Assembly: GCA_963755715.1 (NCBI GenBank) | Contig: CAVWLW010000004.1 | Span: forward strand, 10,554 to 74,553 | Direction of reading: 5' to 3' | DNA length: 64,000 nt | From: an uncultured delta proteobacterium | Lineage (GTDB): Bacteria > Desulfobacterota > Binatia > UBA9968 | In this document: piece by piece, positions 1-53,188 of the stretch | How positions within the stretch are numbered: position 1 is the first letter of the stretch | How the letters are laid out: the number at the start of each line of letters is the position of its first letter | Program-made: the position numbers and the translations under genes | Notes under the pieces: generated by a model | What the model saw: only the letters and a program-made list of their open reading frames with translations | What the model was told of the DNA's origin: nothing | Databases searched by the model: none

Positions 1-435
1 TCTATCGGTAAGCGCGTCGCGCAACCGTTGCAAATCGACAAATCCGTCCGCATTCACAGGCAAATAGCTGATCTCAAAACCGCGCTTTTCTAAAACCTTG
101 CAACAATCCAAAACCGCCTTGTGCTCGGTCACACAAGTGACGATGTGATTGCCCTTTTCGCAATGCGCCTCGGCCACGCCTTTGATGGCAAGATTATCCG
201 ATTCGGTGGCGCCGCTGGTAAAGACGACTTCTCGCGGTGAAGATGCGCCGATCAGTCGCGCCACCTGCTCGCGCGCGGAATCTACCGCGGCTTCAGCTTC
301 CCAACCGAAAGCATGGTTTTTGCTCGCCGCGTTACCGAACCGCTCCAAAAAATAGGGAAGCATGGCATCCAACACGCGCGGGTCGACCGCCGTAGTGGCA
401 TTGTTGTCGAGGTAAATCGGCGTAGTGACTTTCAT
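1..435 (-). CDS. iscS: Cysteine desulfurase IscS, 5' part (runs off window start)
   Basis: Manual translation from ATG at 435 gives [21 protein letters not shown]...FGNAAS...[16 protein letters not shown]...EHKAVLD, the group I desulfurase N-terminus. Not in the ORF track because it is truncated. Confidence 0.93.
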
Positions 436-28126: not shown

Positions 28127-29443
28127 CTAAGACCGAATGGCGATCTTGCGCGGCGCGCGCACCATTACGCTCAAGATGGCGGACAACACGAGCGCGCCAA
28201 CGAAGGCGATAAAAGACAAATGATAGCTGCCGGTCACGTCGTGAACAAACCCGAAGAACGGCGCGCCGGCGGCGCCGAATGCGTAGGTGACGAAGATGCC
28301 CAGGCCGCGCACCGTACCCAGTGAGACCCGGCCGAAGTAAGTAGCCCAGATCAGCTCTTGCAGCACAAAGCTTCCACCCAAGCCGATCCCGTAGAGAAAA
28401 AAACCGACATAGATCGCCAACAGTTGACCACTCGCAATCGTGACCGCCAAGCCCAGCGCCTGGATAAGAAACATCATCGTGCTCGAATGGCGGATCTCAA
28501 TCCGCTCGCTGATAAAACCCCAGATCAAAGTGGAACCAAGCTGCGTCGAAGCGATGATCGTCAACGTGGTCGCGGCCACCATCGCACTAAAGCCAATATC
28601 GGTGACATAGGCAAACACATGGAGATTGAGACCCGCGATGCCAACGTTGGCCATGCCGTACATGAAACAGATAATCCAAAACGTGCGCGTGCCGATGATT
28701 TCGCGGCGCGACCAGACGATTTCGTCGCCGCGGCGCACGACTTCGGCCGCGCGCCTGCGCTCAGCTAGGGCGCCGGATTGCGCCGACGCATGGGCGCCGT
28801 CTGGCATCAATCCCATCTCTTCCGGGCTTCGCCGCATGAATACGGCCGCGGGAATAACGACCAGAACCAAAGTCAACAATCCGAAGACGGTCCAGGTCGA
28901 ACGCCAGCCGACCCAGACGAACAGCGTCGCCGTCACGATCGGAATCAAGACTTTGGCCAAGCCTTGACCAAGGCTTGCAATCGCAATCGCGCGCCCGCGC
29001 TTGCGCACGAACCAGCGCGAGATCGTCACGCTCACGACCATCTGGCACATCAACACCCCGCCGATGGCGACGAAGACCCAGCGCACTAACAAAAACTGCC
29101 AGAACGCGCTCGCCTGGCTGAGCAATACGAAACCGATGCCGGCCGACAACGCGCCGCCGGCCATCAGCCAACGGCCGCCGTAGCGGTCGACGAGTGGCCC
29201 GATCAGCGGCGCCAATGCGCCGGCAAGGAGGATTTCTCCCGAGCGCAGCACGGAAAACAGCCCGCGCGAAACCGCTAAGTCCTCGGTCAAGGGCTTGAGA
29301 AACACGCTCAAGGTGCTCGACATATGAAACGCGCAATTCACCTGCGCGAGAAAGCCGACGGTGACGATATACCAGCCGTAGAAAATTTTTGGTTTTTGAA
29401 TGGCAGTTGGAGTTGAGTTGTAGGAATCCAAAGGAGAAACCAA
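28127..29443 (-). CDS. MFS transporter
   Basis: FYGWYIV, GPLVDRYGGR, WFVRKRG; about 12 TM segments. Confidence 0.9.
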   Translation of the reverse strand: MVSPLDSYNSTPTAIQKPKIFYGWYIVTVGFLAQVNCAFHMSSTLSVFLKPLTEDLAVSRGLFSVLRSGEILLAGALAPLIGPLVDRYGGRWLMAGGALSAGIGFVLLSQASAFWQFLLVRWVFVAIGGVLMCQMVVSVTISRWFVRKRGRAIAIASLGQGLAKVLIPIVTATLFVWVGWRSTWTVFGLLTLVLVVIPAAVFMRRSPEEMGLMPDGAHASAQSGALAERRRAAEVVRRGDEIVWSRREIIGTRTFWIICFMYGMANVGIAGLNLHVFAYVTDIGFSAMVAATTLTIIASTQLGSTLIWGFISERIEIRHSSTMMFLIQALGLAVTIASGQLLAIYVGFFLYGIGLGGSFVLQELIWATYFGRVSLGTVRGLGIFVTYAFGAAGAPFFGFVHDVTGSYHLSFIAFVGALVLSAILSVMVRAPRKIAIRS

Positions 29444-39571: not shown

Positions 39572-42278
39572 TTACTTAGGCTGCGGCCCCAAGACGACCT
39601 GCGCCAAATCGTCGACCTTCAGCCATTTCGCAAACGCCGCTTGGATATCCGCGGCTGTGAACGCCGCGTAGCGTTTGGCCGCGGTGATGGGCTCGTCCAG
39701 CGGTAGATCGCGCGTCGAGCGATCGAGTAAGCCGCCGGCAATGCCCTGGGTGCTCGATTCACTGAGCGGTATGGCGCGCAACAGCAAAATTTTCGCTTGA
39801 TCGAGCTCGGCCGCCGTAACTGGTTTGGTTTGCATGATGCGCAAATTGCGCTCGATGAGCGACCTCGCTTTGGCCACGTTCGGCGGATCGCAGGCATAGG
39901 ACACGGCAAACACGGAACGGGTCTTGCCGGATTGTAAGTGGGCGTCAATAGAATATACGAGACCGCTTTTTTCCCGTAGATCCTGATAGAGCCGGCTGGC
40001 GTAAAAGCCGCCGGACAAAACCTGCAGGCCGACCTGAAGCGCGTAGTAGTCGTCGTCTTGACGCTTGAGCTCGAAGGTCTGGCCAAGTCTGACCTCATCT
40101 TGAACACGGCTTCGATCCGGGACGACGGTGACGCTTCGCCTTATTGCGCGGCACCGGCGGCAAGTCCGTTTCAGGTTTCGGACCCGTGGCCTGCCACGAA
40201 GCAAAATATTTTTCGATAACGGCGCGCGCATGCTCCGGTGTCACTTTGCCGATGACGACGATGGTGGTCAGGTCGGGCCTGAACGCTTTCTCATGATAGC
40301 TACGCACGTCTTCGAGCGTGAGCGCTCCGATTGTATCGGGCGTCGCCTCACGCAGAGTCGGATCCTTCTCGGGATAAATGGCTTTTAGAAAGGTGCGTCC
40401 TGAGCGGTAAACCGGACTTTGCAGTTGACCCGCCACCGCTTGAGCGGTGCGTTGCTGCACGGCTTTGAAGGCCGCTTCCGGCAGCGCGGGATGCAATAAG
40501 TTATCCGCAAGCAACTCCACGCCGCGCGCAAAACCGTCCGGCAGGACCTCGAGGGAAAAGCTGGTTCCCGCCTGCGCGTTGGCGCCGATCTCGTCGAGGG
40601 CTTCCTGGAAAGCGATGCGATCGAGCTTCGTCGAGCCGTAAGCGAACAGATCGTTGAGAATCTGGTCGGCTCCCTCTTTACCGGCCGGCACCTGGAGCTC
40701 AGCGCGATTTTTTACCCGGCCGTACACGCCGACGGTGTCGCTGATGGTTTCCGGTTGAATGATCAGACGCAATCCGTTGGGCAGCACGGTAACGCTTGGG
40801 TTGACGGTGGACGTCGGCACGGCCAATGGCGAAAGCGCTTTTTTCGCCCAAGCCGGCAGCGGCACTGCTTTCGTCTGCTTCGGCGCAAAAGATTCGCCGC
40901 CGGAGCGCGGCCCTTCGGAGGCCACGGCCTCGCCCGATTCGTGTGGCGTCATAATCACCGTAACCGCGCTGTCGTTGATGAGGTATTTTTTCGCCACCCG
41001 ATTCACATCGGCGACCGTGACCTTTTTGATCGCTTCGATGTCGTCGTCGATAGAAGTGCGTCCCTGGACGCTCAACGCTTGCGACCATTCAGCGGCCAAT
41101 CCGGCAATCGAGTTTCGGCGAAATTCCGCTTCCGCCACCTCGCGGCGCTTGGTCGCTTCGACTAAATCGGCGCTAACGCCTTTGTCGACATAGCCGGCGA
41201 TGATGGCTTTCATTTGGGTAACCAGGGCGGCGCTGTCTTGGCCGCGAGGGAATGCTGCGTTCGCGTAGCCGAATCCGGCCATGGGCAATGCCGTGCCGTC
41301 AAAACCGCCGGATAGAGCTTTGCCTTCGGCGGCGAGAGCGTAAAGTTCGCCGCGGCGGCTGTCGAGAGCATCGGCCAGCACCACACCGGCGGCATAATCG
41401 GGATCGTTGAATCCCGGCAATCGATAAGCCACCGCAACCAAACCGTAGGGCAGATCCGAATCGACCTCGATGGTCGCAGGTTTTAGCGGCTGCAGCGCGA
41501 TTTTTGGCCGCGCCGGCACAGTGCGGGCCGGAATCGATTCAAACAACTGCTTGACCGTTGCCAGCGCGGCGTCGGGATTGACGTCGCCGACGATCACTAA
41601 GATCGCATTGTTCGGCGCATACCACTTGCGGTGAAAATCCTTGAGCATCGCCCCGGTGGTTTTTTGAAACGACGGCCGAGTGCCCAGCGCGTCGTGTTCG
41701 TAGGGCGTACCGGCAAACATTTGCGCCAGCAAACGCGAGTAAAACAAATACTGTGGGTTGGAATAATCCTGCGCCACCTCCTGCTCGATGGCGCCCCGCT
41801 CTTGGCGCCACAGCGCGTCGGTGGCGAGGACGTCGCGCATGCGCACCGCCTCGATGCGCAGCGCGGTTTCGAGATCGCCGGTTGGCACGGTGAAAAAATA
41901 TTGCGTGACGATTTGTTGGGTGTTTGCATTGAAATTGCCGCCCATGGCCGCAATCAGACTGGAAAGCTGTGCGGACGAAAGTCCGGGGCTGCCGCGAAAC
42001 ATCATATGCTCCAACGCGTGGGCCATGCCGGGAAAGCCGTTAGGAGCTTCGTTGGAACCGACTAAGTAGTTGATCTGCGTCGTCACCACGGGCGCGAGAG
42101 AGTTGCGTACGATGACGACACGCAAGCCGTTTTTCAGCGTCGCGCGGGTGATTTCCGATTCGGTGGCCGCTTGGGCGCCGACAGTTGCACCGCCTACGAC
42201 AACGCTCACAATGACCCACGCCGCCATCCACGCGAAAACCCTTCTCTGTCCAATTTGTTTCAAATCGTGCGCCTCCAT
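39572..42278 (-). CDS. Secreted M16 (pitrilysin-family) zinc peptidase, frameshifted at about 40135
   Basis: Signal peptide, LKNGLRV, HALEHMMFRG, second half LPNGL..., SRLYQDLREKSGLVY. Confidence 0.88.
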
Positions 42279-42297: not shown

Positions 42298-43055
42298 CTA
42301 GTCTTCCAGCATAACTAATACAAACATCAATCCAACACCCACTCCAATGGCGAGCATCTGCACAACTGATTTGCCAAGGGTTGACTCCTTGTTCAACTCC
42401 GGCACTAAGTCGGAACCGGCGATATATATGAAGCCGCCAGCGGCGAGCGGCAACATTATGCTGGAAAACTCGGCGACTCTGGAGCCAATTGAGAGCGACA
42501 TGACGGTGCCCAGAATCGCAAACAAAGCTGATACAAAATTGAAGAACAGCGCCTTCTTCTTCGTAAAGCCGGCATAGAGCAAGACAAAAAAATTGCCCAG
42601 CTCATGTGGAATTTCGTGAAAAACCACAGCGAGGGTCGTCGCAATGCCGATGTGAAGACTGACATCATAAGAGGCGCCGATTATAACGCCGTCGATAAAA
42701 TTGTGAGCCCCATCCGCCAATAAATTCATGTAACCCACAGGATGTATAGGGTGATCGGATTCCAGCACATGTTGATGTCTCCAGAGCAGAAGTTTCTCCA
42801 GAACAAAAAAGGCAAAGATGCCCGCCAAAACCAAAACGGAGGCTTGTAGCTTATTGCCGAATCTTTCAAAGGACTCCGGCAAAAGGTGAATGAAAGCGTC
42901 GCCGAACAAGCCGCCGACGGCCAGACTGACCATGAAAAATATGATGCGCTTTAGCTTCTCCTCGGCGACTGAGATGAACGCGAGGCCGATGAGCGAGAGC
43001 AGGCTTACCAAAATGACGCTGGCGAGGCTATAAGTCCAAACCGCAGACGTGACAT
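42298..43055 (-). CDS. ZIP family metal transporter (frameshift just after ATG 43055)
   Basis: DAFIHLLPE, DGAHNFIDG, HEIPHELG, AAGGFIYIAGSDLVPE. Confidence 0.9.
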
Positions 43056-43062
43056 CCTCTTT

Positions 43063-44515
43063 TCATCCCGCGAACAGATCCTGCACGATTGCTTTTATTG
43101 CATCCGTAGATGCCTGACCGAGATTCGTCGCGCTGGGCGTAGGAATGGCGCGTTGCACGCGGCGTTCCCACACGATCGCGCCGTCATCAATGCGCACGAG
43201 CTTGAAATCCACCAGAGCGCGCACGAACTTTTGCGTCTCGCCTTCCCAGCGCCAGATCTCAGTTACGAAAACCATACCCGAGAGTTTTCCCTCGCGAGCG
43301 ATGCGTGTCGCTCCTGCGCTGTCGGCGGGAAATGCCGGAAAGCGCGCATCTTTATCCTCGGGAAGAGAAATCTGAAAGCCTTTTTGCCCGAGTTCAGTTT
43401 GCAGGTTCTGGCGCAGCAGATCCATCACGCTCTGTCGATAGTCTTCAGGCAATACCTTGCCAGCCATCTCTGCTAGCGAACGAAGCGGATTGTTCGATGG
43501 CAAGAGCAGCGGCAGCGCCGTGCTGTTTTTTACCTTAGCGAGCCAAAGCTGTTCGGCGTGAATCGCTTTGGCCTCGGGAACCGGCGGCGCCGCGGTTTTG
43601 ACGCTGCAAGCACTTAGCGATAGAGCAACACCAGATCAACGCAAGCAGCGCTGGACGCATTCTCTTCGAGATGCGGCTCAGCCCGTAAGCCAAAAAGATC
43701 AGGCAGCATCCGAGAGCCACGTCCGTCGGTCCTAAAGGGAGATCCAACCGGACTGAGCTATAGAAACCCAAAAAGGCCATGACCAATCCTAACGCTGAAG
43801 AAACTACGAGGAAAGAACTCATCCGGCTAACCAACGGTTTTGCGGCTAGCGCCGGTAGCACCAAAAAGCCGAAAATCAGCAGCGGTCCCGCCATAATCAC
43901 ACCGAAGGCGATGATCAAGCCGGCGAGAAGATAGAGCAAGATGTCCCAAACCACCTGGCGACCTTTCAGCAAAAATGCCAAGTCTCTGTCGAAAGACGTC
44001 AAGAGAAATTCTCGGCGGAAGAGAAGCATAGACACCAGAACCATCCCAAACACCGCGACCAAAAGTCTTAGTTCGGCTTTCGACAGCGCGATCACTTCGC
44101 CCTTTAGTAGATTGAGAACTTCGATCTGACCGGCAGGATTAAAAACCATGAACAAGATCGTCAAGGCGCCGGCGAAAGCATAAGCGGCCGCAAGGCGGCC
44201 CTCCGCTAAGCCTTTGCCGCGCTGTTCCAAATAGCCGAGCAGTCCCATGCCGAGAAAAGTAAAAGCAAGTGATCCGACCATTGCGACGCCTCGTTCGCTC
44301 TGTCCCATTTGCGGCAAGAGTCCGGCCTGCTGCATCCAGAAAGTAAAAGCGACGCCTGCCGCGGCGATTTCCGGGAGTGTCAAACCGAGAAATACCGTGC
44401 GCCTAAGAACGAGGAAAGACCCGACGAGCGGACAAACCAAACCCATGATCATTGTGCCGACTAGCGCGGGGAAAAGGAGATATGAGGGATTGACGATTTC
44501 AAACAACATGCTCAT
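43063..44515 (-). CDS. Metal ABC permease (ZnuB/MntB type) apparently fused to a periplasmic DUF799-like domain; frameshift at about 43625
   Basis: G.FLVLRR.VF, SFD, GPLLIFGFLVLPA. The alternate frame continues LSACSVKTAAPP...SNNPLRSLAE... to 43063. Confidence 0.75.
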
Positions 44516-45240
44516 AGGTGAAGACGTGCCTTTCTTTCGTCCAACCAGATCCGGCCTTTATCAATGCGCATGATACTGTCGGCCACACGTTGCACCATCT
44601 CAAGGTCGTGGCTGGAAAAAAATACTGCCAGACCCTTTTCGCGGGTAAGCTTGGATTAGTAGATCGGCGATGCTTCGCCGGGACTCTTCATCGACGCCGG
44701 ATAGCGGCTCGTCTAAAACCATGATCTTCGGGTTCACCATCAATGCACGGGCAATCAGCACCGTTGTTTTTGCCCGCCGGAAAGGGCAAAAAAGATTTCG
44801 CCGCAATCTGCTGCAATACCAATCTGCTGCACAATTTGCTTTGGCTTTGCTCCTTTTCGCCGCCGGGCAGAAATTTAAACGGATGGACGCGGCCGTAAGC
44901 GCCCATCTCCACGATCTCCGAGGCGCTCAGAGGAAATTGCGGGTCGAGCGTCGCGCTTTGCGGCACGTAACCAAAGTTCGCCAGCGGGCAACCGCGCGAC
45001 AGAGGACACCGTCCGACGGCGCCAAAAGACCCAGAATCGTCCTGAACAGCGTTGTCTTGCCGGAGCCGTTCGGTCCGGCCAGGCCGACGAGCTCCCGGCA
45101 TAGATCTTGACGTTGACGTCATGCAGCACCGGCGCTGAATCGTAGCCGAGGCTGGCATTTTCGAGAGCAACCAGAGCGGCAAGCTTGGTGATCGACTTCT
45201 CCGCCCCGGCACTCTCGCGTGCATCGAATATCCATCTCAA
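44512..45240 (-). CDS. Metal ABC ATPase (ZnuC type), several frameshifts
   Basis: [30 protein letters not shown]...[10 protein letters not shown] spread across frames; stop overlaps the permease start. Confidence 0.8.
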
Positions 45241-45249
45241 GGTTGGCTT

Positions 45250-46186
45250 TCATAGAATTAGACTCACCGCCTGAACCAAGCTACGAACCGTATAGTCGAT
45301 CCATTTGATGTAGGTGTCGGTTTCCGGCTGACCCCCGCCACCGCTGTACAGGCGCAAGCTTTGATCCCGGTTTCGCTGGCGATCTGCTTGGGCAATCGTG
45401 GATTCTGCGCGCCATAAATTAACAACTGCGCTTTTTCTTGCTTGATCTGCTGGGTCAGCTCGACAATATGATTCGGCGTCGGTTCGACGCCGGGCTTTAT
45501 TTCGACGCTGCCGATCCGCTTCATGCCATATCGATCGGCAAGATAGACCCACTCCGGATGGTACTCGACATATTTGACGCCGCGCAACGGCGCCGCCATT
45601 TTGTCCCAACGTCCGATCCAGGTGTCCAATTCAGCGAGATACGCTTTCAGATTTTTTTCCAACGTCGGCTGATGTTGAGGAAAATTCACGAGAGAGACCG
45701 GCGGCGATATTCTGCAGCGACGATTTCGCTCTAACCGGATCTAAAAGATAATGCGGATTGCCCTTGGGATGAAGATCACCTTCCGCGCGGTCGACACGCG
45801 TAGGCGCATCGAGCACGGTGATTCCAACGGAGCAATCGATATAACCCGGCCGCCCAAAAAATTTTAGGGTTGTTGGCGACCTCCAAGAGCGCCGGTATCC
45901 AGGCGTGCTCATCGTCTAGACCGATCAGGATCAGCACGTCGGCCCGGTTCAACCGGGGTACAAAGCTCGGTTTCATCGGCACACCATGAGGATCTTCGAC
46001 CCCAGTCGCCAGAGTATCCACACTCACCAGCTCTTTCCCGACCTGCTTGGCGATATCCGCCAAAGCCGGCCACGTCGCGACGACACGGATCTGCTGCGCG
46101 AAAATTACGCCCGTTTCAAGAGAAAGAAATACAAGAGTTAGAAGAATCGTTTTCCAGCTTCTACAACTGAACAATTTCATCTTCAT
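45250..46186 (-). CDS. Metal ABC solute-binding protein (TroA/ZnuA family), several frameshifts
   Basis: Signal peptide, EDPH, GDLHPKGNPHYLLDP, YH..W.Y, EIKPGVEPTPNH; AAGGAG RBS. Confidence 0.85.
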
Positions 46187-46209
46187 AAATGAACTCCTTC
46201 GCAAACTCC

Positions 46210-47457
46210 TTAACGACCAAGAAATCCGTGGGTGTGGGCGCCGATAACTGTCGTCCATTGCAGAAAGATTTGATTGCCGTTCTCGGCTTTGGACGCGCCG
46301 CGAAAATTGTTGTTCAAGTAATAGTATTCAAGGCGCAGTCGGTTAAATTCGCTGAGATTCCAGGTGAGATATGGCGAGTAGCTCATGGTCCGTTGCCCGG
46401 GGCATCAACGATCGGAGCGTAGTCGACTTGGAATCCCGTCGACCAATTCTTGTTGAGCTTCAGATCGGCGTAAGTGTAGCCACCATATGATTTACTGCGG
46501 TTGGCGTGTCATCAGTTGGAAAACGTTGATTGTTAAAATAGAACTCACTCCCAAAATCACGCCCTGGTAAACCGCACTGTTAAGCGGTTGATAGCGATAG
46601 GTCAAATCAATACCGTTAAGAACTCGATTGCCGCCGCCGCTATCGCCGGCAAGCGCACCGAAGGCGTATAGGCCATGGTCGTGCCCAGCTCGACGCTGTG
46701 GTTATCGGTAAGATCGAAGTAGGTGCTCAGCCTGCCGAGGTATGTAAATTGGCTCCACGAGCGCGATTTGCATTGCTGACTGGTCATTGTCCTCGCCGAT
46801 CTTGTTATACCCCCCTAATGTCGCGCGCAAGAAAAACGGTGTCGGAAACAAATAATTGACTTCCACTCCGTCCGCCTGCGTTTCGCCACCAATCATCCGT
46901 TGGACGGATAGTGGCTCATTTACGAAAGGCAACTCGTGCTCGTGAACTTTGGGAAACCGCCCAAAATCGGCCAGAAACCGACCTGCCTTGACCGTCAAGT
47001 TGTAAGGAAGAGAACTTGTGATTGCGGCGGCTTCGTCGATCTCTACGCCATCCTTTGTGCCGTTGATAAAACTATACATTCTTGCAAACGGGTCCACGGA
47101 AGCTGCAATTCCCAGCTCTGCGCTGCGGAAATCAAAATTGCCTCCGGCTTTGCCAAGATTTTGCACATTGGCATCGAGCACGAGTCCCATGGACGGATTC
47201 AGCGCCGTCGGCGCACTTTGAACCGCCTGGACTGATTTCTCCACTTCTCCGATTCGCGCCGAGCTGGAAGATTTTTCCTTTTCCAATTGGTCAATCCTTT
47301 CCAAAGCTTTTTGCATCTGCTGCTCCATGCCCTTGACCGTGGCCCGCAGAGATTCCAACTCCGAACTTTGCGCCAGGCCAGCCGTTGGAACAAAAAATAT
47401 TAAACCCCATAGGGTAAATGCCGCGCTTCGCCGCGCCGATGCTGATAGAGATACCAT
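46210..47457 (-). CDS. Outer-membrane beta-barrel/porin-like protein of metal-ABC operons, several frameshifts
   Basis: Signal peptide, coiled coil, AELGIAASVDPF, KAGRF..FG...HEH; C-terminus FLQWTTVIGAHTHGFLGR* at 46210; AGGGAGG RBS. Confidence 0.7.
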
Positions 47458-47567
47458 GTCGAGACCTCCCTCCAAGCCAAACCAGCCGCCCTCTTATTAA
47501 AAGAACCGCGACGATAGAAGGCAGACGATGTAGTTATGCTGTGATAATTCCGATTTCGAACCGGGAA

Positions 47568-47887
47568 CTACAGGGAGGTCAAAGAAGGCGGTCCTCGAAC
47601 GTGCTGCTGTGCCGACTCCTCTTCCAGCCAAACAGCAACAGGAAGATCGGCGACTTGAGAGATGCAAAGTTGTGGGACTATGGTTAAGGGACTCGCAGTT
47701 GGAGCCAATTGAGCGCGGGTGCCCTGAAGACAACTACAGTCCTTAGTAACTTGCGATACGATCGAAAAATGAAAATGGAGAGGAAGGAAAAAACAAACAC
47801 AAGAGCCAGCGCGCTGATAACCTGCCGGCTCCCGAGCGTTTTTCGCATTCCCGGAAGATGCATGGCATCGAACCTAAACAATGTCAT
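47568..47887 (-). CDS. RGPP-type leader/arrest peptide (DUF2946/CruR-like), hidden by a 1-bp deletion in A6 at 47788-47793
   Basis: Adding one T gives ...ALVFVFFLPLHFHFSIVSQVTKDCSCLQGTRAQ...QHVRGPPSLTSL* (106 aa), a paralog of 50076-50369. Confidence 0.78.
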
Positions 47888-48011
47888 CCCTGATGTCAAC
47901 GAACCGCACGCCCTCGAAAAAACCTCCGACGATCGGACACCGTAACCGCGGGATTAGATCGGTCAAAGCAGTCACAGATAAGCTGATTCAGTGACCGATT
48001 GTTGTGACCAA

Positions 48012-48584
48012 TCAATGAAAAATCTCCCGCATGACCGTCTCGGCTACGATAACATTAGCTTGGCCCGTTAATACGACGCCATAAACTGGGACCGGGCGGG
48101 AGGGACGGTGTACCTGCCACAGTACCCCGCCGGTTTTCGGATCCACCATCACCGCGTCCAGCGCCACGATTACGCCGTCGGCTTTCATGCCGCGACTGTC
48201 CGGCGTCGGCTCCCAGCGCCGCACTTCGATGTAGAGGGCCATCGCGTCAAGGTTGGCCTCGCGCAGAATCTGCGCTGCCATCTCTGGGCTAGTGGGCACA
48301 CGATCCTTGGTTGCCACTTTCACCGCACTCGGACTGAGGACTTCGAATCCTTTCTCCGCAAGTCTTATGCGAGCTTGCTGGGCGAGAACATCTCCCACAG
48401 TCATGTTTTGCAAAACAGGGGGACCGCTGTCTGCGCCGGTGCGAGCCTCGACGGCGCCAGCTTGGTAGGTTGGAAGCACCGCGATTCGATGAAGGTTCTG
48501 CGGCAAAGGAGTAACCACTGCTGGCGCGCATGCGACTGCTCCGAATAATCCGGCGATCAGTACGATTTTGAGCATGAACATCAT
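48012..48584 (-). CDS. DUF799/GNA1162-like lipoprotein
   Basis: AVAC lipobox, RIAVLP, L.EKGFEV, DPKTG.VLW. Confidence 0.7.
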   Translation of the reverse strand: MMFMLKIVLIAGLFGAVACAPAVVTPLPQNLHRIAVLPTYQAGAVEARTGADSGPPVLQNMTVGDVLAQQARIRLAEKGFEVLSPSAVKVATKDRVPTSPEMAAQILREANLDAMALYIEVRRWEPTPDSRGMKADGVIVALDAVMVDPKTGGVLWQVHRPSRPVPVYGVVLTGQANVIVAETVMREIFH

Positions 48585-48621
48585 GCTGATTCGAAAGTCG
48601 TGTGTTTGTGACACGAACAAA

Positions 48622-48922
48622 TCATTCAGACGGAGGGTCTTGCGGCTTGCTGTAATCCCTTCGCCTAGCCCGCCAGTCATCGTTTATTCCATTGAAAATT
48701 CCATCCGGAAAGCAGTGACACATCCCTGATCCGCCAAAGAACTTTTTATTCGCCACCTCGCACTCTTCCAGAGAGCTGTACCACTCGACCGCACGCGATT
48801 CCGTTTCCTTCATGTCTGTTCCCAACGGATGAATATGACATGAAGTCAGCCGCCCAAACGGCGTTAAAGGACCACGAGAGGCCAAGCCCGGCGAAGGTAA
48901 ACAATCTGAATCCGAACATCAT
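48622..48922 (-). CDS. Small secreted Cys/His protein (probable frameshift at about 48840)
   Basis: ATG abuts the NlpC stop (TGAATG); signal-like MMFGFRLF...VWAADF, then CHIHP...EEC...CHCFPD in the shifted frame. Confidence 0.5.
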
Positions 48923-50403: not shown

Positions 50404-50561
50404 AGCATTGGACGGCAATTTTTTTGCCACGCGACGAATTCTACAGGTCTTTCGCGGTTGGTGAATGCTACGTCAACGGAGTAAGATCAGGGCGCTTTCG
50501 CTGATCTAAGATCGGAAAGTAACAATCGAATGCCGCGCAAGCGGGCTGGCCATGATGACTG

Positions 50562-50590
50562 TGTAAACCTCCTGGGCATTGGCGCGTCTA
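50562..50590 (+). promoter_or_regulatory. ECF sigma promoter
   Basis: TGTAAAC-16 bp-CGTCTA (AAC/CGT pattern) upstream of the operon containing the ECF sigma. Confidence 0.65.
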
Positions 50591-50637
50591 AGGCCATTAG
50601 ACCGCATCAAAACTTCAAGAAACAGGGGGATTTAGGT

Positions 50638-51078
50638 ATGATCAACGGAAAATCGCTTTGCGCCACTGGGGTGCTCGCCGCGGCGCTGGCAATAGCCGCT
50701 TCGCCGGTGCTAGCCGCCGAAGGGACGATCACCGGGCCAGAGAGGCATGAGTTACGCCATGACCGGCGCGAGATTCGGCGTGATCGAAGAGAAATTCATG
50801 GCGACCGCAGAGAGATTCGTGGCGATCGGAACGAGCTCCAAGGTGATCGCCGCGAATTAGTCCGAGACCGCCACGAACTGCGCCACGATATTAAGAGCGG
50901 CGCCGGCAAAGCAGAGATCGCTCAGGACGTGAAGGAAGTCCGTCAAGACCGCCGAGAGATCGTCGGCGACAAGGTGGATCTTGCCCGAGACGCGAAGGAT
51001 ATTCACGGCGATCGCCGGGAGCTGCGCCAAGACCGCGGAGAATTTCGCCGCGACGCAAAGGACGCGCTGAGGAATTAA
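50638..51078 (+). CDS. Secreted heptad-repeat (xDRREI/LR) protein
   Basis: Signal peptide (...VLA-AE) followed by many 7-aa repeats; 21-bp periodic DNA. Confidence 0.8.
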
Positions 51079-51189
51079 CGGGGAGCGAGCGTGACTCCGA
51101 ATGAACCGGCGGTATCGACCCTCGCCGCCCGCGCCCCTTTCTCCATCTTTTCCGGTGCGCCGGCAATATCGAAAGCTAGGAGTCGCTTG

Positions 51190-51753
51190 GTGAATCCCGG
51201 AGACGAGGAGTTAGTGGCGCGGGCCCAGCAGGGCGACCGCCGTGCGTTCGAGGAACTCGTGGAACGCCATAAACAGAAGGCCTATTACATCGCCTTTGAT
51301 TTTTCGCGCGACCGCGAAGACGCCAAGGACCTGTCGCAAGAGGCGTTTTTGAAAGCTTTTACGAATCTCAAAAAATTTGACGGGCGATCGAGCTTTTATA
51401 CCTGGTTTTACCGCATCCTCGTTAACCTCTGTCTGGATTACAAGCGCCGCCAAAAACGGGCTCCGACGGATACCTTTGACGAGACCCTGGAGAGCCACAT
51501 GGAACCTTCCCACGAACCTAAAAAACCGCGATCGCCCGATCAACAAGTTTTCGCCGGGCAGATTTCGCGCCGGGTTGGCGAAGCGCTCGAAGCCCTGCCG
51601 GCCAGGCAGCGAACTGCGTTCATACTAAAAAATCATCAAGGGCTGTCGATCAAAGAAATCGCCGAGTTAATGGAGACCGCGGAAGGCACGGTCAAAGTGC
51701 ACCTGCACCGCGCGGTGACGGCGCTCAGACAGAGCCTGGCGGAATTCGCCTAG
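51190..51753 (+). CDS. ECF RNA polymerase sigma factor
   Basis: DAKDLSQEAFLKA, FYTWFYRILVNLCLD, region 4 SIKEIAE..GTVKVHLHRA; AGGAG before GTG 51190. Confidence 0.92.
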   Translation: MNPGDEELVARAQQGDRRAFEELVERHKQKAYYIAFDFSRDREDAKDLSQEAFLKAFTNLKKFDGRSSFYTWFYRILVNLCLDYKRRQKRAPTDTFDETLESHMEPSHEPKKPRSPDQQVFAGQISRRVGEALEALPARQRTAFILKNHQGLSIKEIAELMETAEGTVKVHLHRAVTALRQSLAEFA

Positions 51754-51756
51754 GAG

Positions 51757-52278
51757 GTGGATATGGCGAATCGCGATAGAACACCGAATCCTTGCAAAGA
51801 ATTGGAAGAAGATCTCGTGCTGCTCCATTACAGCGACCTCGCCGGCGCCGAACGCCATGCGCTGCAAGATCATTTGGTAAGCTGCGCCGGCTGCACCGGT
51901 TATTTAAAAGAGCTGGCGACGCTTTTACCACTGACGGTTAAAGCGGACGAACCGTCACAAACTTTTTGGCACGATTACAGCCGCGAACTGCGCCACAAGA
52001 TCGATGCGGTGAGCGAAAAGCAGTCTTGGCGCCAGCGGCTCAGCGGCTTTTTTCACCCTTGGTCCATTCCCGCCCTCGCCGGCGCCGCGGTCGTCATGTT
52101 GGCACTGACGTTGACCTTCGGCAAAGGAATCTGGCAGAGCAATGATCTGCCGAAAGACGATGCCGCCATGATCGAGGCGCTCCCGGTAGCGGAAAATTTG
52201 GAATTTTTCAAAGCGATGGACGTGCTCGATGACCTGGATCTTTTGGAGTCCATGGGCAACCAGGGCGACGCCGCCTAG
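51757..52278 (+). CDS. Zinc-binding (zf-HC2) membrane anti-sigma factor
   Basis: HLVSCAGC (HxxxCxxC), TM, C-terminal ENLEFFKAMD. Confidence 0.85.
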   Translation: MDMANRDRTPNPCKELEEDLVLLHYSDLAGAERHALQDHLVSCAGCTGYLKELATLLPLTVKADEPSQTFWHDYSRELRHKIDAVSEKQSWRQRLSGFFHPWSIPALAGAAVVMLALTLTFGKGIWQSNDLPKDDAAMIEALPVAENLEFFKAMDVLDDLDLLESMGNQGDAA

Positions 52279-52295
52279 ACTGACCCGAGGACACA

Positions 52296-52541
52296 ATGCG
52301 GTTCTGCGCATGGGTGTTGGCTCTCACCCTAGGCATCTCAGCGGTCGGTTTTGCCGCGACCAAGGACTCAGAGCCGCCCGATCGTGAGATGTTAAAGATG
52401 ATGGAGCTCCTGCGCGAAATGGAAATGATCAAACAAATAGACATGCTGCAGGATATGCAACGTCTGGAAAATAGCGATCCGGTAAAAGACTCAGCGGCGC
52501 AGAAATCCGCTCCCGGCAAGAAAAAGGAGACGCCGAAGTGA
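52296..52541 (+). CDS. Small secreted Met-rich protein
   Basis: Signal peptide; EMLKMMELLREMEMIKQIDML; overlaps the next gene. Confidence 0.7.
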   Translation: MRFCAWVLALTLGISAVGFAATKDSEPPDREMLKMMELLREMEMIKQIDMLQDMQRLENSDPVKDSAAQKSAPGKKKETPK

Positions 52542-53188
52542 GGTCACTGAAAACTGCCGCAAGCTTTCTTTGGCTTTTGGCTCTCCTCATCGTGCCTGCG
52601 GCCTGGGCCCAGCCCGCGCCGCGCACCGAGACGTTGGCGCAAAACGACAATGACACGTTGGAACGCTGGCAGCGCATGACGCCCGAGCAGAAACAGGAGC
52701 TGCGTGACCGATTCCAGCGCTGGAAAAATCTCCCACCCAGTGAAAAGGAAGAACTGCAGCGGAAGTTTGACAATTGGCGCCGCTTGCCGCCGGAAGAGAA
52801 AGCCACGGCGCGGCGCAACTTCGAGCGTTGGCAAAAGTTACCGCCCGAACAGCGTGAGCGCCTGCAGGAACGCTGGCGCCAATGGCGCGAGCTGCCGCCG
52901 GAACGGCGCGAGGAGCTGCAGCGGCGATGGCAACGCATCGAGAATTTACCCCCCGAAAAGCGGGAGCAATTGCGGCAAAAGCTCCAAGAGTGGCAACGGC
53001 GCTCACCGGAAGAGAAGGCGCAGATACGGGAAAAGGCGCGGGAGCGCGTGGAACGACTATCCCCGGAAGAGAAACACGAGATAAGAGAAAAACTGCGGGA
53101 GATGAAGCAGCGCGGCACGATCGAAGAAAGAAAACAGTTTCGCGAACAGTTGCGCGAGAAGATGCAGCAGCGCAACGAAAAGGACTAG
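52538..53188 (+). CDS. DUF3106 repeat protein
   Basis: Signal peptide; 18-aa repeats W..LPPE.K/R..L... Confidence 0.85.
   Translation: MRSLKTAASFLWLLALLIVPAAWAQPAPRTETLAQNDNDTLERWQRMTPEQKQELRDRFQRWKNLPPSEKEELQRKFDNWRRLPPEEKATARRNFERWQKLPPEQRERLQERWRQWRELPPERREELQRRWQRIENLPPEKREQLRQKLQEWQRRSPEEKAQIREKARERVERLSPEEKHEIREKLREMKQRGTIEERKQFREQLREKMQQRNEKD

Follow-up and report, generated by a model that had tools for sequence, protein, structure and literature searches.

In several bacterial leaders, among them SecM ahead of secA, MifM ahead of yidC2 and VemP ahead of secDF2, an arrest peptide lies near the C terminus, and a helix holds the Shine–Dalgarno (SD) sequence of the next gene, the arrested ribosome overlapping the 5′ strand of that helix. 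SecM, MifM and VemP monitor Sec or YidC activity and regulate that machinery. To our knowledge, post-transcriptional sensing of transition metals by a nascent peptide has been documented so far for copper alone, in the form of CruR and CutF. Here we describe a leader open reading frame (ORF) of about 98 residues that ends in an arrest-type Arg-Gly-Pro-Pro motif and stands ahead of a metal-uptake operon in a 64,000-nucleotide stretch of DNA (hereafter the window) from an uncultured, Binatia-labelled delta proteobacterium (assembly GCA_963755715.1, contig CAVWLW010000004.1, positions 10,554 to 74,553 of the forward strand). The last codons of this leader contain the exact complement of the SD sequence of the next gene.

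According to the CruR paper (PMC9426467), CruR (Bordetella pertussis Bp2923, Pfam DUF2946) carries a CXXC motif, then 45 residues, then RAPP three residues from its end; copper relieves the arrest, and Rho then terminates transcription ahead of an uptake gene for a TonB-dependent receptor. CutF (Rhodobacter capsulatus, DUF2946, cutFOG), as outlined in PMC9973294 and bioRxiv 10.1101/2025.02.05.636593, has a CxxxC motif and a proline-rich end, and its copper-prolonged stalling melts a stem that shields the SD of cutO; PMC9973294 also sketches the arrangement of the SecM, MifM and VemP type. In the main text of a 2025 EMBO J paper (PMC12992588), RAPP and RGPP are reported to give robust arrest, with the first proline in the P site and the second in the A site (CruR toeprinting), and small proteins with these motifs are found upstream of metal genes in many phyla.

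An earlier interpretation of the window, made without database searches (the sequence-only reading), had pointed to a perfect anti-SD under a predicted stalled ribosome and had proposed a secM/mifM-like switch in which stalling frees the ribosome-binding site (RBS) and metal-triggered release closes it again. We checked every coordinate on the minus strand and found that GACCTCCCT is indeed the exact complement of AGGGAGGTC, the SD of the outer-membrane-protein gene (here called porin-like), and that it starts, as had been stated, at the sixth nucleotide past the last proline codon of RGPP. The elements of this arrangement, in mRNA order, are as follows.

47863–47568, minus strand: leader ORF, about 98 residues, including the TAG stop codon at 47570–47568; from three-frame translation, intact orthologues and the family profile.
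47777–47769, minus strand: His-Phe-His codons (HxH), directly past the hydrophobic segment; H24 and H26 are invariant in alignment A3, which comprises 53 leader sequences.
47738–47730, minus strand: Cys-Ser-Cys codons (CxC), 44 codons ahead of the RGPP arginine as counted from coordinates; C37 and C39 are invariant in A3.
47597–47586, minus strand: Arg-Gly-Pro-Pro codons, the predicted arrest site, with the first proline codon (47591–47589) in the P site and the second (47588–47586) in the A site, a placement taken from the CruR toeprinting in PMC12992588.
47591 to 47582, minus strand: Pro-Pro-Ser stretch CCGCCTTCTT, 5′ strand of an alternative helix proposed in the sequence-only reading.
47580 to 47572, minus strand: anti-SD GACCTCCCT, inside the tail codons Leu-Thr-Ser-Leu and spanning +12 to +20, counted from the first base of the P-site codon.
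47571–47544, minus strand: small stop-codon hairpin, which begins at the leader stop codon and is stacked inside the anti-SD:SD helix in the minimum free energy (MFE) structure.
47524–47486, minus strand: internal hairpin of the MFE structure, with a CU-rich 5′ arm CTGCCTTCT (47524–47516) and a purine-rich 3′ arm AGAGGGCGG (47494–47486).
47495 to 47486, minus strand: purine block AAGAGGGCGG, which complements CCGCCTTCTT with one G-U pair.
47471 to 47463, minus strand: SD AGGGAGGTC, followed by a 5-nucleotide spacer and the ATG (47457–47455) of the porin-like gene.

The RGPP motif is followed by five further codons and the stop, and the anti-SD ends 1 nucleotide before the TAG. The 9-mer of the anti-SD and SD occurs twice in the window, once per strand and at these two sites, against an expectation of 0.17 occurrences; none of 100 shuffles contained it two or more times. 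The sequence CCTCC is present at the 16S 3′ end of the same genome, and RNAfold places the anti-SD:SD helix within the MFE structure of 47440–47620 on the minus strand (−54.7 kcal/mol). A search of 46500–48800 against Rfam gave no family match at E up to 5, and a known riboswitch or leader class was thereby ruled out for that interval.

In the window the leader is split over two frames, one base being missing in the T run at 47788–47793 (47787/47788). The first frame begins M-H-L-P-G-M-R-K-T and runs into a hydrophobic stretch; the next frame supplies FFLPLHFH, followed by KDCSCLQGTRAQ and, before the stop, QQHVRGPPSLTSL. An extra base after 47787 is present in the contigs of all four public runs (two DNA and two RNA libraries, from four studies), so the leader ORF is intact in nature and the break is either an assembly error or a variant. 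Both strands of the proposed helix agree with the window in these data: no difference is listed for 47572–47591 in any of the four runs, or for 47463–47471 in the three that cover it (X1, X6 and X15). Between the two strands, extra single bases appear after 47526 in two runs and after 47553 in three of the four; the latter is a T inside the stop-codon hairpin, the natural form of which may differ accordingly from the one drawn here.

The leader recurs well beyond the window. When 61 relatives were searched at the DNA level, four genomes of the same genus proved to carry the region, and their intact ORFs end in VRGPPSSASL, VRGPPFRASL, VRAPPSTVSL and IRAPPVL. A profile built from six leader sequences matches 68 of the 123 genomes of the order (64 of 119 leaving out four unpublished genomes), with matches in 64 of 89 genomes of family f1, in 3 of 5 of f2 and in 0 of 28 of f3. 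In an even sample of the whole phylum, 8 of 401 genomes matched at E ≤ 0.01, the window's own included; the other seven matches were weak (E 2.4e-4 to 0.01, over 33–46 profile positions, with internal stops in 5 of 7) and were rejected as non-members. The leader features given next refer to 72 parsed leaders, unpublished loci left out; 59 of the 72 precede the porin-like gene. HxH and CxC are found in 72 of 72 leaders, the former 10–12 residues ahead of the latter, and so is R[AGS]PP (RAPP in 46, RGPP in 25, RSPP in one). In 69 leaders, 44 residues separate the last CxC from the arginine; past the two prolines, the tail is five residues long in 50 leaders and two to six in 71. Invariant positions in A3 are L21, H24, H26, C37, C39, R84, P86 and P87, whereas the 44-residue spacer is variable. 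As read from the alignment, the N terminus has basic residues and then a hydrophobic stretch of about 15 residues ending in LPLHFH. Judged from these comparisons, the leader is a real, conserved gene family that is unannotated: among 5.8 billion proteins a profile search retrieved 490 homologues, and the best 120 of these are unnamed or called 'hypothetical protein', none of them with a Pfam domain.

Membership in DUF2946, the family of CruR and CutF, was considered and rejected. PF11162 (DUF2946) matched none of six leaders even at E up to 10, and an NCBIfam scan of the leaders was also negative. Across the window's whole genome PF11162 gave two sub-threshold places, on other contigs and none at leaders, and it was found in 0 of 301 phylum genomes, with a positive Caulobacter control; the metal motif, too, is different. 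In the ESM Atlas, clusters named DUF2946 are among the nearest by features (0.93–0.94; 171–175 shared features), a hint of distant kinship that we treat as a lead. A match of the leader to the CzcI family is weak (E 0.068).

The stretch from the arginine codon to the start codon of the next gene follows a common plan across relatives, namely CU-rich RxPP and tail codons, a CU-rich 5′ arm, a purine-rich 3′ arm and the SD. In single-sequence folds the hairpin between the two arms is nested inside the helix between tail and SD. Over the 59 loci, the SD core is predicted to pair with the zone of the two prolines and the tail at a median probability of 0.83 (above 0.5 in 48), and the tail:SD duplex has a median energy of −17.8 kcal/mol. 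The arms of the internal hairpin vary in sequence from locus to locus, and its median energy is −16.7 kcal/mol. Dot-brackets read by eye show the SD paired with the RxPP/tail zone in the MFE structure of 19 of 20 folded loci, and the fold z-score is −2 or lower in 12 of these 20. The modelled cost of opening positions −16 to +3 has a median of 13.6 kcal/mol, a value that just 4% of 250 strong-SD genes of the same genome reach; for those genes the figure is 8.0. Because the tail:SD helix closes round a stable internal hairpin, the RBS is predicted to be unusually costly to open.

Two lines of evidence argue that this complementarity is under selection. The first is codon choice. C and T make up 78% of the tail (C 44%, G 13%), and serine is written TCC or TCT in 76% of cases in the tail, against 34% in the leader body and 32% in the porin-like gene; for leucine as CTC or CTT, the corresponding values are 77%, 46% and 30%. 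The second is a fit between each tail and its own SD flank. Because the register of the anti-SD slides between loci, register-free tests were used in place of column-wise covariation, on 44 loci less than 70% identical. Cognate tail:SD duplexes averaged −18.46 kcal/mol, compared with −15.44 ± 0.36 for permuted partners, and 0 of 5,000 permutations were as good. With the SD zone reversed, the effect was nearly gone (165 of 3,000 permutations as good), and with an ORF stretch further upstream in place of the tail it was gone (1,472 of 3,000). The spacer between the SD and the start codon, which is under no constraint from 16S rRNA, showed the same preference, with 3.30 bases paired in cognate combinations and 2.63 in permuted ones (1 of 5,000). 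On this evidence selection maintains the anti-SD in a conserved leader of arrest type, and the anti-SD:SD helix, as modelled, is probably functional.

A second helix had been proposed in the sequence-only reading, in which the Pro-Pro-Ser codons pair alternatively with 47486–47495 and the two helices are not nested. The complementarity, with its one G-U pair, is there, and the strands follow each other on the mRNA in the order B5′, A5′, B3′, A3′ (A, anti-SD:SD; B, Pro-Pro-Ser helix), so the two helices do cross. However, the pairing of tail and hairpin 3′ arm carries no locus-specific signal in the 44 loci (1,335 of 5,000 permutations as good) and competes with the local hairpin, and this second helix was therefore given no weight.

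The leader heads genes for metal uptake, as had been supposed. In the window these are, in order of transcription:

47457–46210, minus strand: porin-like outer-membrane protein gene, from three-frame translation and intact orthologues of about 416 residues; several assembly frameshifts.
45264–46258, minus strand: ZnuA pieces (Pfam ZnuA, 5e-12 and 1.5e-18).
About 44688–45240, minus strand: ABC ATPase gene, frameshifted, assigned from its position between ZnuA and ZnuB and from tblastn to the same place in relatives.
43535–44515, minus strand: ZnuB-type permease (Pfam ABC-3, 2.5e-34).
43063–43503, minus strand: lipoprotein gene.
42298–43011, minus strand: ZIP transporter (Pfam Zip, 4.7e-45).

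The two ABC ATPase pieces that were scanned gave no Pfam match, and the porin-like protein matched no Pfam or NCBIfam family beyond coiled-coil noise. In the ESM Atlas the latter lies among Binatota hypothetical proteins, with one cluster carrying Porin_O_P on 22% of its members, which is a lead only. The porin-like gene stands 73–111 nucleotides downstream of the leader in 59 of the 72 loci, and in 20 contexts picked for long contigs the gene order downstream of the leader is the same, with ZnuA and ZnuB homologues, in 19; a lipoprotein is present in 16 and a ZIP transporter in 6. By its gene content the operon is one for metal uptake, of zinc type or at least for a divalent metal.

Set beside CruR as described in PMC9426467, the family shares a small peptide, here putatively exported or membrane-targeted, as first gene of a metal-uptake operon, a long intergenic region downstream, a cysteine motif at a fixed distance ahead of the arrest motif (45 residues in CruR, where changes to this spacing break regulation, and 44 here), an arrest motif a few residues from the C terminus and an ORF end in which C exceeds G. 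It also shares the proposed logic, in which arrest would mean uptake on and release by metal uptake off. It differs in its lack of a Pfam DUF2946 match, in combining CxC with an invariant HxH where CruR has CXXC, in using RGPP besides RAPP, and in standing ahead of porin-like, ZnuABC and ZIP genes and not of a TonB-dependent copper receptor. CruR acts via Rho, and its paper describes no SD-shielding helix and does not contain the term 'Shine-Dalgarno'. With CutF the family shares a stem between leader and next gene, here a predicted one, that shields the SD and that, in CutF, is melted by the stalled ribosome. In CutF, however, copper prolongs stalling and turns on a detoxifying oxidase. The genes downstream in the present family are uptake genes, and release by metal is the more logical direction here. 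The anti-SD of CutF lies in an intergenic stem-loop, whereas that of the present family lies in the last codons of the leader, and no membership in DUF2946 is detectable.

The likeness to SecM, MifM and VemP is a leader, here putatively exported or membrane-bound, with an arrest motif near the C terminus and a downstream SD that is predicted to be sequestered; the difference is that the downstream genes here are metal transporters and that the leader has invariant histidines and cysteines. ApdA, ApdP and the Streptomyces lividans arrest peptides are likewise small secretory or membrane proteins with R-A/G-P-P close to the C terminus, and some members of that set precede metal-homeostasis genes and have conserved Cys and His; the downstream classes named for it comprise TonB-dependent receptors, YcnI, PCu(A)C, PepSY, DsbA and thioredoxin (PMC12992588, main text). 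By analogy, the present family works like a relative of the known copper-sensing switches, with a ruler and probably a logic like those of CruR and an SD shielding like that of CutF.

We therefore considered a model in which a nascent-peptide sensor heads the metal-uptake operon. The ribosome would arrest with the first proline codon of R[AG]PP in the P site, at which point the His/Cys motif would be just out of the exit tunnel. In the free mRNA, the CU-rich stretch from RxPP to the stop would pair with the SD of the porin-like gene and the spacer behind it. While arrested at RGPP, the ribosome would occupy or abut the 5′ strand of this helix and lower the cost of opening, and the uptake genes would be translated. 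Once metal bound the nascent motif, arrest would be relieved, the ribosome would terminate and leave, the helix would re-form and translation of the operon would stop; Rho may afterwards also terminate transcription on the untranslated C-rich RNA. Given the zinc-type operon, the metal is most likely zinc. The sequences, the conserved ORF with its motifs, the gene order, the predicted pairing, the codon bias and the locus-specific fit are shown here, whereas the arrest itself, the metal that is sensed, the way in which the switch runs and any part played by Rho are inferred. The core of this model, in which arrest opens the RBS and a metal, probably zinc, releases the arrest and re-closes it, seems to us evenly poised between right and wrong. 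A fuller version deserves only a tentative hearing: a zinc-responsive switch on a leaderless mRNA, in which a site of two His and two Cys emerges at the R[AG]PP arrest, zinc binding pulls the chain free and the leader's last codons then close the RBS of an outer-membrane channel and ZnuABC operon again. Such a switch may be the first of its kind, the protein counterpart of a zinc riboswitch that has not been found, order-wide in Binatia-labelled metagenome-assembled genomes and duplicated before other metal transporters such as MerC-like genes.

To model the effect of an arrested ribosome, the first proline codon was placed in the P site, and footprint limits at +11, +13 and +15 were compared. 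A median of 75% of helix pairs over the 59 loci fall within +15 (at least half of them in 50 loci) and a median of 53% at or before +11. With many helix pairs inside the RxPP codons themselves, a ribosome arrested there would be bound to disrupt a large part of the helix in most relatives. With the +15 footprint the residual tail:SD duplex weakens from −17.8 to −8.0 kcal/mol, and the family median of the opening cost falls from 13.6 kcal/mol in the free RNA to 11.2 at +11, 10.4 at +13 and 9.6 at +15, the last being near background. The lowest modelled cost (median 8.8) was obtained with a ribosome at the stop codon.

Several results weigh against this model. Of the anti-SD that had been placed under the stalled ribosome, 4 of 9 core pairs lie inside +15, as do 4 of the 14 pairs of the extended duplex, but the remaining five core pairs lie beyond it and none is at or before +11. 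The opening cost in the window, 15.7 kcal/mol in the free RNA, falls to 14.4 at +13 and 9.2 at +15 when the ribosome footprint is masked, but rises to 19.0 at +11. The family-wide drop is modest as well (median 2.5 to 4.2 kcal/mol, by the limit chosen), and the per-base probability that the SD is unpaired rises only from 0.07 to 0.23. Although the anti-SD:SD helix is part of the MFE structure, the whole fold of 47440–47620 is no more stable than shuffles (z −0.53; 57 of 200 as good), and the stretch from the arginine codon to the ATG has a z-score of −1.40, which is not significant, so the window's own fold energy was dropped as evidence. RNAalifold gave no consensus structure for 44 representatives, and for 12 close relatives it gave a 5-bp helix between the tail and upstream purines plus a 4-bp hairpin (−4.41 kcal/mol) in which the SD is not used; column-wise covariation was thus not found, whereas the register-free fit of cognate over permuted partners, with its flat controls, is present. 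The tail has two purine partners, and its duplex with the 3′ arm of the hairpin is generically just as strong (−18.4 kcal/mol). In 11 paralogous leaders ahead of MerC-like, NlpC/P60 and other genes, the tail:SD pairing is inconsistent, exceeding a probability of 0.5 in 5. Finally, the loci are kin, and the counts overstate their independence. Of the secM/mifM-like switch, then, what stands is a helix that recurs with locus-specific fit at the end of a conserved leader that carries R[AG]PP and in which the His and Cys residues do not vary, but the opening of the RBS in the window depends on the footprint limit assumed.

We weighed four other explanations against the sensor model. The one that survives best, which we nevertheless hold to be unlikely, makes Rho control of the CruR type the main or only output: the arrested ribosome would shield a C-rich, G-poor Rho-utilization (rut) site, release by metal would lead to termination ahead of the porin-like gene, and the SD fit would be secondary. 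The base composition speaks for this reading and, to that extent, against SD shielding as the main output, since the median C-minus-G excess in 78-nucleotide windows over the 59 loci is 0.13–0.17 when centred 0–40 nucleotides past the arginine codon and then turns negative. With such an excess from the RxPP codons to about +40, and with the 44% C and 13% G of the tail, the CU-rich tail could serve Rho; CruR shows the same kind of C>G bubble (PMC9426467), and the RNA-library contigs end 14 nucleotides inside the porin-like gene or at the RGPP codons, which is a weak hint. A rut role, however, predicts neither that the tail fits its own SD flank best (0 of 5,000) or pairs with the spacer, nor that the RBS is costlier to open than that of 96% of strong-SD genes. 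In addition, rut sites are unstructured, but here only a short C-rich stretch precedes a stable hairpin (median −16.7 kcal/mol). Rho control and SD shielding are in any case not mutually exclusive.

Because the anti-SD in the window begins at +12 and 4 of its 9 bases are covered, there is also room for a model with the logic inverted, in which the helix would be closed during the RGPP arrest and opened by read-through to the stop codon, and metal would prolong arrest and shut the uptake genes off. A mask to +11 indeed gives no drop in cost in the window (19.0 against 15.7 kcal/mol), the stop-codon ribosome has the lowest modelled cost, and CutF (PMC9973294) is a case of metal prolonging and not relieving stalling. 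We nonetheless consider the inverted model quite unlikely: over the 59 loci the arrested ribosome would already cover a median of 53% of helix pairs at +11 and 75% at +15, and the helix would stay open for a much shorter time under a ribosome in transit than under one that is arrested.

Very improbable, in our view, is a role of the internal hairpin as an intrinsic transcription attenuator, with the position of the ribosome on the tail deciding between the hairpin and tail:3′-arm pairing. The stability of the hairpin would suit such a device, as would the strong generic tail:3′-arm duplexes (−18.4 kcal/mol) and the RNAalifold result for 12 close sequences, in which the tail pairs with the hairpin 3′ arm; at least six U are found in the next 8 nucleotides in 12 of 59 loci, and at least five in 18. 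Even five U of eight are missing, however, in 41 of the 59 loci, the fit of tail to 3′ arm is not locus-specific (1,335 of 5,000), and one RNA-library contig passes through the hairpin to 47443. A terminator scan of the window lists nothing from the leader stop to the porin-like gene, and on this empty scan, together with U-runs in 12 of 59 loci alone, an intrinsic terminator was rejected as the general mechanism.

Weakest of all, and in our estimate very improbable, is that there is no switch and that the leader is a small membrane metal-binding protein (a chaperone, or CzcI-like) whose R[AG]PP and Ser/Leu-rich tail serve the mature protein, the SD fit being a by-product of CU-rich codons: the shuffle-level fold of the window, the absent column-wise covariation and the CzcI-family match at E 0.068 would agree with it, but the synonymous codons of the tail are strongly skewed to pyrimidines, the complementarity is locus-specific with flat controls, RAPP-like motifs are reported to be kept out of proteomes unless they lie close to the C terminus of a small secreted or membrane protein ahead of regulated genes (PMC12992588), and the Cys-to-Arg spacing fixed in 69 of 72 leaders is explained by a tunnel ruler and not by a role in the mature protein.

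The principle of the sensor model is already in print. What appears to be new is the unannotated order-wide family, the ligand set of HxH plus CxC, the zinc-type operons and an anti-SD inside the last codons of the leader, with apparent action on translation. The main text of PMC12992588 makes no mention of porin-like/Znu operons, Binatia or Shine–Dalgarno pairing; literature searches on zinc or znuA arrest-peptide leaders and on CruR, CutF and DUF2946 yielded no account of the leader family, although paper supplements might list it. As the authors of the CruR paper note, neither copper nor zinc has a known riboswitch (PMC9426467). If confirmed, the sensor model would extend metal-sensing arrest peptides to a second metal, show that Rho and SD shielding, each already known as an output, can act together, and offer a small natural component in which metal controls translation within about 400 nucleotides. 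Because the next gene can be annotated 'hypothetical protein', such leaders would escape surveys that sort by next-gene annotation.

Ahead of the leader, we noted one further element by reading the sequence:

47899–47894 and 47876–47871, minus strand: promoter-like element, TTGACA and TAGGTT with a 17-nucleotide spacer, ending 7 nucleotides ahead of the leader ATG.

A promoter scan of the window does not list this element. Its end only 7 nucleotides ahead of the start codon suggests a leaderless mRNA as template for the leader. A search for the strict pattern TTGACN-16..18-TAnnnT-5..9-[AG]TG found it in 28 of 72 loci of relatives, in 27 of which the start is in frame with the leader; the in-frame starts give leaders of 96–100 residues, plus one of 108, and GTG is the start in 21 of the 28. 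No conserved Zur-box-like operator was seen in the printed promoter spacers, which were inspected by eye with no formal test. RNA-library contigs of two studies cover 47443–47846 and 47592–47845, whereas DNA contigs extend on both sides. The RNA-library contigs are compatible with a leader transcript more abundant than the body of the operon, contigs as such showing neither levels nor ends, and flanks left uncovered being no sign of absence. Their upstream limits at 47846 and 47845 are a weak hint of the promoter-like element.

Upstream of the first leader, the window contains a second, paralogous leader and other genes:

50369–50076, minus strand: second leader, 97 residues, intact, with the end IRAPPVS-stop; from the ORF list and alignment A1.
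49953–49474, minus strand: MerC-family gene (Pfam MerC, 1.7e-22), behind the second leader.
49405–48923, minus strand: NlpC/P60 gene, upstream of the first leader.
48680–48012, minus strand: GNA1162-like lipoprotein gene, upstream of the first leader.

The second leader heads these three genes, and two arrest-type leaders thus stand in tandem within one metal-related cluster. For the SD behind the second leader, the predicted partner is a stretch 13 nucleotides past the stop codon and not the tail codons. A small ORF elsewhere, on the minus strand of contig C56 of genome G000 (reverse-complement offsets 28599–28937), has a hydrophobic N-terminal stretch and the end DGDHHTRAPPPRL-stop; it was picked from a regex scan of 84 hits, otherwise mostly out-of-frame noise, and could be a further arrest-type leader.

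Many single-base indels in the assembly break several frames of the window, namely those of ZnuA, the ABC ATPase, the porin-like gene, the leader and an M16-type peptidase (39572–42278). Public-run contigs, compared with the window, have inserted bases at 47526, 47553, 47787, 47916, 47973, 47976, 47977 and 47994 and one deleted at 48005. Further along, ORF translations show two secreted-looking proteins on the plus strand, one (50530–51078) with repeated R-x-D-R-R-E-type units and the other (52538–53188) with repeated L-P-P-E-x-R-E-x-L units. Between them lie an ECF-sigma-like ORF (51091–51753, plus strand) and a possible anti-sigma ORF (51757–52278, plus strand), and such charged-repeat and sigma neighbours also adjoin the operon in a relative (locus L005).

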